From contig JAHPZH010000007.1 in assembly GCA_019058315.1 (NCBI GenBank), positions 160,001-224,000 of the forward strand: a stretch of 64,000 nucleotides of DNA, read 5' to 3'. This document shows, piece by piece, positions 46,421 to 47,959 of this stretch. Each line of letters opens with the position of its first letter. The first letter of the stretch is position 1. Source of the DNA: Candidatus Helarchaeota archaeon. Lineage in GTDB: Archaea > Asgardarchaeota > Lokiarchaeia > Helarchaeales > RDOG01. Under the pieces are notes generated by a model, which saw nothing but the letters and a program-made list of their open reading frames with translations, was not told the DNA's origin and made no database searches. Both the position numbers and the translations under genes were made by a program.

Positions 46421-47959
46421 TTGCCTCGTAGTAAAAAATCTACCAGTACAACTACAAAAAAAGCTAAAATTAAAAAAGATGATAAAGAGGAAGAAGAACT
46501 TCTATCAACGGAATCCCCAGAATCAGAAGAAGAATTATTATTGGGAACTGAAGAGTCTACAGAAACAGAAGGTGAATTATTATTAGGCGGGTCAGATTTA
46601 TTAATGGATACTAGTGATAAAGGAATTTTATTAAAAGGTATCTCAGAAAAGGACTTAACCGAACAATCTGGTTTATTATTTGGGACTGAGAAAAAACTCG
46701 AAAGTGAAGATGGGGAGTTATTATTAGGTGAAATAACTGAAGAAGAAGAAGGTGATGAACTTCTAACAAGTACTCACTTGACAGCTCCAATTGAACAATT
46801 ACCTGAAACCAAAGAAGCCGAAACAATAACAGGGCGTAAACCCGAAGAAATCCTTGTAGCTTTCGATGGGAATCTAAACGAAAGGGGAAAAATATCAGAA
46901 TCATTTCTTGATCTAAAGAATTTTTTAGAGAGTAATAATGTTAAATGCTCTAACTATACTGACGTCTTTAAACTGATAAATCTGGCTAAATATGACTGTT
47001 TGGTTTTTGCATGTCCTGATGCTTCTCGTATGAATAAATTTGAGATTAATGAGCTTAAGCGCTTTGTAGAAAGCGGGGGAAGTTTACTCTTATTGAGTCA
47101 TGCAGGAGGAGATCGTGGCAGAGCAACTAATTTAAATGAACTATCTCAAAATTTTGGAATTCAATTTATTAATGATCAAGTTTTTGATGAAGTACATAAC
47201 ATAGGATTAAATAGTCTTCCAATAATTGACGATTTTGCCGACCATCCTATCTTAAAAAATATTAAAAATTTTTGCTATCGCGCTGGATGTAGTATAGAGG
47301 TTACTGGAAATACAAAAATAATAGCTGATGCTGATGCTATCGCAGAACCTACAAATGCTGGATGTTGTGCTGCCGCAACTATAAAAATGGGAAGGGTAGT
47401 TGCTCTAGGCTCGTATGAGATGTTTAGAAATCAAATGCCAGGTGGAATAATATACGAGACCCACACACTTCTATTTTTAAATATAATTGATTGGCTAACA
47501 GAAAAAAAAGATGAGACCCGACTTGTTCAAAGCCTTGAAAGGTTTGGTTTAGCAATAAAAAGACATCTAGACAAGTTAAAAATTGGTAAAGCCATTAGAA
47601 AAGAAACTAAAAAATCTACCTTTAAATTACCAGTCCTCACAGCAAAACCCACTGGTGATATTGTTGATATGGATGGCATGATTTTTGCTTTTAAAGAACT
47701 GGGAGGAAATTTCGAAAATCTACAAGAAGAAGTTCAAAATAACTTAAAAGAAATGAATTCAATTGTTAAAGGAATTAGTATGGGAACTGTGAGGGAAATA
47801 GAAAAATTAAAAGAGGAAATTAAAAATTTAAGAGAAGATAGAAAAGATACCGAAGAAGCCATGAACACTTTCTTTATGGAAATGGGAAAAGAAGTTGAAA
47901 CATTAAATAAAAAAGTTGATAAGGTAATTAAAATTTTAAGTGGGAAGAAAAAAACCTAA
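46421..47959 (+). CDS. GIFT (GldG/IFT52-like) domain protein with acidic repeat N-terminus and C-terminal coiled coil
   Basis: YDCLVFACP...EINELKRFVESGGSLLLLSHAGGD....NLNELSQNFGIQFINDQV...GRVVALGSYEMF...NIIDWL; TTG after SD GGAGTGA. Confidence 0.75.
   Translation: MPRSKKSTSTTTKKAKIKKDDKEEEELLSTESPESEEELLLGTEESTETEGELLLGGSDLLMDTSDKGILLKGISEKDLTEQSGLLFGTEKKLESEDGELLLGEITEEEEGDELLTSTHLTAPIEQLPETKEAETITGRKPEEILVAFDGNLNERGKISESFLDLKNFLESNNVKCSNYTDVFKLINLAKYDCLVFACPDASRMNKFEINELKRFVESGGSLLLLSHAGGDRGRATNLNELSQNFGIQFINDQVFDEVHNIGLNSLPIIDDFADHPILKNIKNFCYRAGCSIEVTGNTKIIADADAIAEPTNAGCCAAATIKMGRVVALGSYEMFRNQMPGGIIYETHTLLFLNIIDWLTEKKDETRLVQSLERFGLAIKRHLDKLKIGKAIRKETKKSTFKLPVLTAKPTGDIVDMDGMIFAFKELGGNFENLQEEVQNNLKEMNSIVKGISMGTVREIEKLKEEIKNLREDRKDTEEAMNTFFMEMGKEVETLNKKVDKVIKILSGKKKT

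Follow-up and report, generated by a model that had tools for sequence, protein, structure and literature searches.

A predicted cytoplasmic GIFT-domain protein of a Helarchaeota archaeon, homologous to the N-terminal domain of IFT52 and carrying a lineage-specific array of acidic Leu-Leu motifs

Positions 46421-47959 of a 64,000-nucleotide stretch of DNA from Candidatus Helarchaeota archaeon (contig JAHPZH010000007.1; in the following, the window means this whole stretch, which has a G+C content of ~30%) encode a soluble protein of 512 amino acids (aa) that contains a GIFT domain, i.e. the domain also found at the N-terminus of the ciliary protein IFT52, and that we refer to as the GIFT protein. 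It is one order-level lineage's version of a mostly single-copy, cytoplasmic Asgard family that combines a GIFT domain with a helical tail. Its new features are a lineage-specific array of acidic Leu-Leu motifs and a remodelled tail. The genome analysed (5.79 Mb, 12 contigs) has a completeness of 94% and a contamination of 6.6%, and an AlphaFold2 model of the full protein was built on an 89-sequence alignment. The gene and the parts of its product are as follows (pLDDT, predicted local distance difference test):

46421-47959, forward strand: whole gene of the soluble GIFT-domain protein, 512 aa plus stop codon (open reading frame list and translation)
46421-46486, forward strand: basic head, aa 1-22, net charge +7 by charge count; its Lys-rich start is kept in orthologs
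46487-46801, forward strand: disordered acidic array, aa 23-127, with 26% Glu, 22% Leu and a net charge of -28; pLDDT <50
46850-47506, forward strand: GIFT domain, aa 144-362, a class-I glutamine-amidotransferase-like α/β fold (PF23355, AlphaFold2, VIA-align, Foldseek)
47507-47602, forward strand: helical linker, aa 363-394 (AlphaFold2 helices 363-385 and 388-394), without heptad periodicity
47621-47638, forward strand: FKLPVL motif, aa 401-406, in a low-confidence linker, recognized by its conservation in orthologs
47669-47953, forward strand: two long amphipathic helices, aa 417-471 and 476-511, with a Lys-rich tip; AlphaFold2 pLDDT 57-89

In the model of the full protein pLDDT values are below 50 for aa 1-127 and reach 85-98 for aa 144-362, the GIFT domain, which carries the strongly conserved surface signature of its clade, CPD, SHAGGD, GCS and GSYEMFR. 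Neither a signal peptide nor a transmembrane helix was found in the GIFT protein, the peak hydropathy over 19 aa (1.13) lying within a strand of the GIFT domain, and the protein is predicted to be cytoplasmic. In this respect, as well as in the basic start that is followed by an acidic low-complexity stretch, the hydropathy and the charge counts bear out a preliminary description of this DNA, which had been made from the letters alone. Within the FKLPVL motif F, P and L are invariant in the orthologs and in the same-family genome G001. The two tail helices exhibit a 3.5-residue hydrophobic periodicity, the observed value being reached by shuffled sequences with a frequency of 0.0035 (aa 417-471) and 0.0005 (aa 476-511), respectively; judged from the model they are probably amphipathic packing helices that form a hairpin or a coiled coil. 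The C-terminal coiled coil of the preliminary description is thus borne out as far as its helices are concerned and stays putative as a coiled coil in the strict sense.

The GIFT domain is a true homologue of the N-terminal domain of IFT52 (IFT52N), and IFT52 is its best match among solved structures. Pfam assigns the domain to PF23355 (IFT52_GIFT) with 52.6 bits (cutoff 27.2), and the matches to ABC_transp_aux (PF09822; 19.5 bits, cutoff 34.7), DUF4350 (PF14258; 16.9 bits, cutoff 30.4), OST48_N (PF03345; 16.2 bits, cutoff 36) and ThuA all stay below their cutoffs. A phmmer search of the PDB returned IFT52 as sole significant match, with E-values of 1.6e-7 (CrIFT52) and 1.6e-4, the next match being a ribosomal protein with an E-value of 0.085. 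In Foldseek the N-terminal domains of IFT52 come first, with E 3e-17, a TM-score of 0.85-0.89 by target and 21-24% identity, and OST48 follows at a distance of seven orders of magnitude. VIA-align gives Z-scores of 27.7 and 27.2 for IFT52N from Chlamydomonas and mouse, respectively, with a root-mean-square deviation of ~2.0-2.1 over 213-216 residues, followed by OST48 (21.7), a site-1-protease domain (19), STM3548/STM1381 (18.6), ThuA (16.9) and glutaminases (~15). An IFT52-like GIFT domain, as suggested in the preliminary description on the basis of a few sequence segments, is therefore confirmed by profile as well as by structure comparison. STM3548 and STM1381 are cytoplasmic bacterial proteins from Salmonella that have the same fold as the GIFT domain, so that a cytoplasmic location is no special mark of the GIFT protein.

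The disordered N-terminal region contains eight [DE]x[DE]LL motifs, i.e. the very repeats that had been pointed out before, which a sequence scan located as follows:

46487-46510, forward strand: Leu-Leu motif 1, at aa 27
46523-46546, forward strand: Leu-Leu motif 2, at aa 39
46565-46588, forward strand: Leu-Leu motif 3, at aa 53
46586-46609, forward strand: Leu-Leu motif 4, at aa 60
46613-46636, forward strand: Leu-Leu motif 5, at aa 69
46661-46684, forward strand: Leu-Leu motif 6, at aa 85
46706-46729, forward strand: Leu-Leu motif 7, at aa 100
46748-46771, forward strand: Leu-Leu motif 8, at aa 114

Within this acidic array the motif takes the form [DE]-x-[DE]-L-L-x-G. The strict pattern [DEGN][DE]LL[LFY]G was searched in the open frames of at least 80 aa of the whole genome (2.13 million residues) and occurs four times genome-wide, three of the four occurrences being located in the GIFT protein; a rough hand estimate based on typical residue frequencies gives ~0.001 chance copies per protein of this size. 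No other protein in the open frames of the whole genome contains the motif array. Six orthologs (57-83% identity in the protein search) retain seven of the eight motif positions, i.e. the repeats, whose conservation the preliminary description had left open, are conserved. Moreover, the LL columns of these six orthologs show 81% identity and 86% hydrophobic residues, as compared to 57% and 14%, respectively, in the other N-terminal columns. Distant relatives keep the motif with changed spacers, with ~2 copies in G001 (P0121), ~4 copies in P0111 and 2 copies on a 50-aa extension in P0117; over the lineage the array has 2-8 copies. At the DNA level the array holds three 21-nt copies with 86% identity as well as a 35-nt pair 42 nt apart, and these dispersed copies demonstrate growth of the array by local duplication; Tandem Repeats Finder detected nothing in the repeat region. 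Taken together, the sequence comparisons indicate that the Leu-Leu array is not a product of chance, that it is under selection and that it behaves as a short linear motif and not as a drifting low-complexity spacer. They further indicate that it is confined to one order-level lineage and is not a property of the whole Asgard GIFT family.

The protein search returned 90 relatives of the GIFT protein, and all named ones are Asgard (Lokiarchaeum ossiferum, Promethearchaeum syntrophicum, Thor-, Hod-, Jord-, Frey- and Helarchaeota), the nearest named records coming from Promethearchaeota (Asgard) and Helarchaeota metagenome-assembled genomes; no NCBIfam family was found for the protein. A scan of one genome per species yielded 154 encoding loci, nearly all of them Asgard. 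With a GIFT-domain profile and a threshold of E<=1e-40 the family is detected in 180 of the 251 genomes of the phylum and in 76 of the 89 high-quality ones, usually with one copy per genome, and some taxonomic families have none at this threshold. Across the Asgard classes the GIFT domain shows a mean column identity of 62% and 31 invariant columns, including CPD, SHAGGD, GCS and GSYE-FR. A tree was calculated from 129 GIFT domains (eukaryotic IFT52 was not among the rows), with support from the Shimodaira-Hasegawa-like approximate likelihood ratio test (SH-aLRT). In this tree the GIFT protein belongs to a 6-row clade (SH-aLRT 99), most members of which have an N-terminal extension. This clade is sister to four order-level relatives and is nested in a 70-row clade (SH-aLRT 97) of mostly N-terminal-GIFT proteins that are free of transmembrane helices; every named member of the 70-row clade is Asgard, and its lone hydropathy match, in P0099, lies inside the GIFT domain.

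In its GIFT domain the GIFT protein is 42-48% identical to the main Asgard family (e.g. NEF87_003477 of Lokiarchaeum ossiferum and DSAG12_01155 of Promethearchaeum syntrophicum), with which it also shares signature motifs, solubility, a helical tail and, usually, the single copy, and it is its own genome's best match to that family. The differences lie on both sides of the GIFT domain: main-family proteins begin at the GIFT domain, which is followed by a variable linker, whereas the GIFT protein has a 143-aa N-terminal extension, and the main family has a conserved tail motif, KLNS..NL..F.EKK..G....Y.KQ..KL, whereas the tail of the GIFT protein has no detectable homology to the main-family tail (hhalign probability 0.9%). 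Furthermore, the main-family gene is located directly 3' of a gene for a sugar-1-phosphate nucleotidyltransferase (left-handed β-helix) in 67 of ~78 loci, a count drawn from loci L009-L088, and the nucleotidyltransferase gene is usually preceded by genes for a GPN-loop GTPase and two unknown proteins, for which no Pfam or NCBIfam family was found. This GPN-loop GTPase/nucleotidyltransferase operon is missing from the GIFT locus, and there is no such cluster in the genome. Since the gene order around the GIFT gene recurs only in G001, the operon is missing and the tail is non-homologous, we conclude that in the order-level lineage the gene was relocated, its tail exchanged or remodelled and the motif array acquired.

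The main-family cluster can be seen in full at locus L010:1837-6940 (forward strand), where genes for unknown proteins of 140 aa and 324 aa, the GPN-loop GTPase, the nucleotidyltransferase and the GIFT protein follow each other co-directionally. A RagA/Gtr1- and Arf-like small GTPase recurs beside some cytoplasmic GIFT genes (L044, L056, L067, L080 and L116-L118; coordinates L056:6786-7937, forward strand, and L116:6376-7347, L117:6277-7176 and L118:6118-7017, reverse strand); its gene lies between the nucleotidyltransferase and GIFT genes in P. syntrophicum and, in order-level relatives, is found in divergent orientation beside second copies. In one order-level family a shorter GIFT-plus-tail relative (369-432 aa; L112:4446-6252, reverse strand, as well as L111 and L114) is found downstream of a histone-deacetylase-family gene and one or two genes for unknown ~190-aa proteins, all co-directional. 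GIFT relatives with 45% identity are also carried by contigs titled Bathyarchaeota (L038) and Nanopelagicaceae bacterium (L052), which are probably mis-binned; the latter contig also carries the full main-family operon.

Eight proteins of the genome match PF23355, i.e. the GIFT protein and seven further paralogs, four of which are soluble or tail-anchored and three of which are large surface proteins. The latter are encoded by open frames of 1357 aa (L003, C5:617050-621120), 816 aa (L006, C7:265924-268371) and 1280 aa (L007, C1:155534-159373) and have hydrophobic anchors at the N- and C-termini as well as many N-x-S/T sequons, and one of them appears, by inspection, to be subtilase-like at its N-terminus. 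The remaining paralogs are L001, L002, L005 and L008.

The GIFT gene starts with TTG, and this start is supported by the orthologs, which open with the same Lys-rich MP(R/S/P)xKK. The following signals were read from the sequence around the gene:

46370-46383, forward strand: A/T-rich box, putative promoter
46406-46412, forward strand: Shine-Dalgarno-like AGGAGTG, 10 nt upstream of the TTG, putative ribosome-binding site
47988-48019, forward strand: T-rich runs (47988-47999 and 48014-48019) 3' of the stop codon, archaeal terminator-like and probably acting as such

The gene is flanked by a divergent gene for ribosomal protein L31e on one side and by convergent genes for a PDCD5-like protein and S19e on the other, and the GIFT genes of order-level relatives are found in other gene contexts than this S19e/PDCD5-like/L31e block. 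The gene neighbourhood gives no functional clue. Two neighbours deserve mention in their own right. In the L31e open reading frame (45824-46330, reverse strand) the Pfam match to L31e covers aa 90-154 and is preceded by an acidic N-terminal extension of ~85 aa, and the counterpart of this frame in G001 is likewise long (179 aa, of which 79 aa align), the true start codon being uncertain. In the same synteny block, positions 49512-50528 (forward strand) encode a 338-aa protein that is composed of an AbrB/MazE-type domain and a PhoU domain and is 67% identical to its G001 counterpart.

In IFT52 the GIFT domain contacts the tetratricopeptide repeats (TPRs) of IFT88 and the IFT57/38 coiled coil, and the extended segments next to it bind IFT88 and thread through IFT70 (PMC9753473). 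As the most likely reading, we consider it somewhat probable that the GIFT protein is a multivalent scaffold or adaptor that consists of a conserved GIFT binding module, tail helices and a Leu-Leu array. The GIFT domain would serve as conserved binding module for a partner or ligand, and the amphipathic helices of the tail would mediate self-association or bind a partner. The array, in turn, would hold a partner through the avidity of its many acidic Leu-Leu motifs, much as disordered segments of IFT52 attach in extended form to IFT88 and IFT70, which are TPR solenoids. Several points weigh against such a scaffold. The analysis yielded no partner of the GIFT protein, its gene neighbours encode unrelated housekeeping proteins (L31e, a hydrolase of the metallo-β-lactamase (MBL) fold, a PDCD5-like protein and S19e), and the synteny of S19e, PDCD5-like, L31e and MBL hydrolase genes is common only to the same-family genome G001. 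Moreover, AlphaFold2 docks the N-terminal array on nothing, and the tail-only model, with a mean pLDDT of 48, is too poor for interpretation. A passive spacer is another possible role of the acidic Leu-rich stretch, and a ligand, metal or catalytic site would account equally well for the invariant Cys, His, Asp and Glu residues.

Based on the latter residues, the GIFT domain might keep a glutamine-amidotransferase-like pocket, perhaps for a metal or a sugar nucleotide, with the flanking regions regulating or localising the protein. According to the rules of α/β folds the invariant residues are positioned at strand C-termini (D149, C198-P-D200, S226-H227, G229-G230-D231, C290-S291 and S331-Y332-E333), the fold matches ThuA, GATase1 and carbohydrate-enzyme domains with Z-scores of 14-19, and the frequent position of the main-family gene directly after the sugar-1-phosphate nucleotidyltransferase gene is a hint toward a sugar nucleotide. 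However, the nucleophile elbow lacks a canonical Cys-His-Glu triad pattern, the nearest structures, IFT52 and OST48, are non-enzymatic scaffolds, and the nucleotidyltransferase operon is missing from the protein's own genome, so we regard a ligand-binding or catalytic role as rather unlikely. Endocytic adaptors of the AP180/epsin type contain an acidic disordered region in which short [DE]LL-type motifs are repeated many times and act by avidity. The repeated DLL-type motifs in the acidic disorder of the GIFT protein recall AP180, several copies fit [DE]xxxL[LI] or [DE]xxLL by inspection, and among the proteins of the genome are large ones with HEAT repeats and Adaptin_N-like matches; the array might thus be an acidic dileucine, DxxLL or clathrin-box-like sorting signal that is read by an Asgard adaptor. 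Yet neither a VHS domain nor a clathrin propeller was found in the genome, its sigma-adaptin match (18.9 bits) remains below the cutoff, the Adaptin_N matches are generic HEAT repeats that are also found in control genomes, and the array occurs in no other protein of the genome, unlike what would be expected for a general sorting signal. A coat-type signal is therefore highly improbable, and of the likeness to coat-binding motifs that was noted in the preliminary description the fit of several copies stands, as an analogy only. Even less probable, to a degree that we give it next to no credence, is an adaptor of the type of ESCRT-I (endosomal sorting complex required for transport I), in which the helical tail would be a steadiness-box hairpin: AlphaFold2 shows a two-helix tail and steadiness-box proteins are known in Asgard archaea (PMC10936438), but the tail has no detectable homology to the main-family tail, Pfam gives only sub-cutoff, non-specific coiled-coil matches, and no Vps23-type match was obtained at E-values up to 10. 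With regard to the HEAT-repeat proteins themselves, the best Adaptin_N segment of a 2543-aa frame (C7:22231-28494) scores 41.7 bits (cutoff 37), and within the window a 671-aa frame contains an Adaptin_N-like HEAT match at 26406-26732 (forward strand) with 25 bits, i.e. below the cutoff.

The preliminary description had also linked the protein to the ancestor of IFT52. In this scenario the cytoplasmic Asgard GIFT family would be sister or ancestor of IFT52 and the GIFT protein a surviving pre-ciliary scaffold. It is in line with IFT52N being the top structural match by ~6 Z units and IFT52 the sole significant PDB sequence match, with both proteins being cytoplasmic and with Asgard archaea being the closest relatives of eukaryotes. 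As a proxy for kinship we scored group-specific profiles against a fixed target, IFT52 from the PDB. The narrow main family (profile A3) gives 60.7 bits with CrIFT52 and 53.8 bits with MmIFT52, and the broad cytoplasmic Asgard clade (A8; 33 rows, 20% mean identity) gives 114.9 and 93.0 bits. However, profile A6, whose diversity equals that of A8 and which includes Methanofastidiosia proteins, reaches 122.2 and 95.2 bits, respectively, i.e. a group with non-Asgard members scores equally well or better; one protein of this group is named 'Gldg family protein' and several are membrane-anchored. The Asgard paralog clade (A5) scores 82.4 and 65.9 bits, and a group including a protein with a type IX secretion system (T9SS) sorting tail (A7) 61.7 and 45.2 bits. 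As a single sequence, too, P0213 from the A6 group (43.0/44.6 bits) scores above the GIFT protein (33.5/23.6 bits), and PF23355 also matches a secreted bacterial-type protein with a T9SS sorting tail, with 56.7 bits. Among the best 150 matches listed, the Asgard profile matches GldG/DUF4350-type proteins at 100-125 bits, ten candidates from a representative search that were checked by Pfam are all prokaryotic-type, and the nearest neighbours of the GIFT protein in the ESM Atlas are bacterial and archaeal GIFT clusters. Furthermore, the clade invariants C198, D200, H227, C290, Y332, E333 and R336 are not common to IFT52, and Pfam finds the GIFT domain only, i.e. neither the central (IFT88/IFT70-binding) nor the C-terminal (IFT46-binding) region of IFT52 is present in the GIFT protein. 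IFT46 (PF12317) and IFT81 (PF18383) have no match in the 94%-complete genome, with the sensitivity of these profiles being unproven as no control genome matched either, and IFT57 (PF10498) has one sub-cutoff coiled-coil match, which is also found in control genomes. Since close prokaryotic GIFT structures are lacking in the PDB, the candidate groups cannot be told apart by structural ranking. Thus, the special link to the IFT52 ancestor is not upheld: nothing in the sequence data marks the cytoplasmic Asgard family as the closest kin of IFT52, and direct kinship of this kind appears clearly improbable to us. The GIFT protein is no archaeal IFT52, and no machine resembling that of intraflagellar transport (IFT) was found.

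IFT52 is the backbone of the machine that builds cilia, and how the IFT subunits originated is a matter of debate on the emergence of eukaryotes. With a strongly conserved cytoplasmic protein of the IFT52 type that is widespread in the archaea closest to eukaryotes, an obvious candidate relative is at hand. The automated annotation in UniRef already names relatives 'IFT52 GIFT domain-containing protein', and our literature search found no paper on IFT52 relatives in archaea or joining IFT52 and Asgard archaea. Nevertheless, as non-Asgard archaeal GIFT proteins are, on the present data, just as close to IFT52, a claim of ancestry would be premature without a proper tree. We may speculate, and consider it very doubtful, that IFT52 arose from the cytoplasmic Asgard GIFT stock and that the lineage described here displays the design of IFT52, i.e. 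a GIFT head, a disordered stretch with multiple motifs that binds solenoids, and a pairing tail; if this were true, the principle of the IFT-B1 backbone would be older than cilia. The lineage-specific, near-unique and conserved motifs offer, by mutation or as bait, a tractable handle on the first partner of the family.

Among the known systems, GldG/ABC_transp_aux (PF09822) and DUF4350 (PF14258) proteins of prokaryotes belong to the same superfamily as the GIFT protein, which differs from GldG in having neither a signal peptide nor a membrane anchor nor ABC-transporter neighbours. The N-terminal domain of OST48/WBP1 shares the fold at the superfamily level (Z 19-22, 13-18% identity), but OST48 is lumenal and has a C-terminal transmembrane helix, which is lacking in the GIFT protein. 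With AP180/epsin there is a likeness in working principle only and no homology, and the clathrin terminal domain and VHS receptors were not found in the genome. The closest comparison is that with IFT52 (OSM-6/BLD1), a component of the IFT-B1 core: its N-terminal domain (PDB 5FMR, 5FMS and 8BD7 chain B) has the same fold, homology extends over ~215 residues with 24% identity and a profile E-value of 1.3e-15, and the motifs GGS-L-L, GG[DE], TN-N, FG, ND-V and GR----GS--F-D are common to both proteins. In the alignments IFT52 lacks the clade invariants listed above; moreover, its GIFT domain is N-terminal, whereas that of the GIFT protein begins at aa 144, and its disordered region is central, whereas that of the GIFT protein is N-terminal and acidic. 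Nevertheless, both proteins are cytoplasmic and both pair a GIFT domain with disordered regions, which in IFT52 are binding regions, and with a helical C-terminus, and by this analogy the GIFT protein could work as IFT52 does without being a member of the IFT machine.

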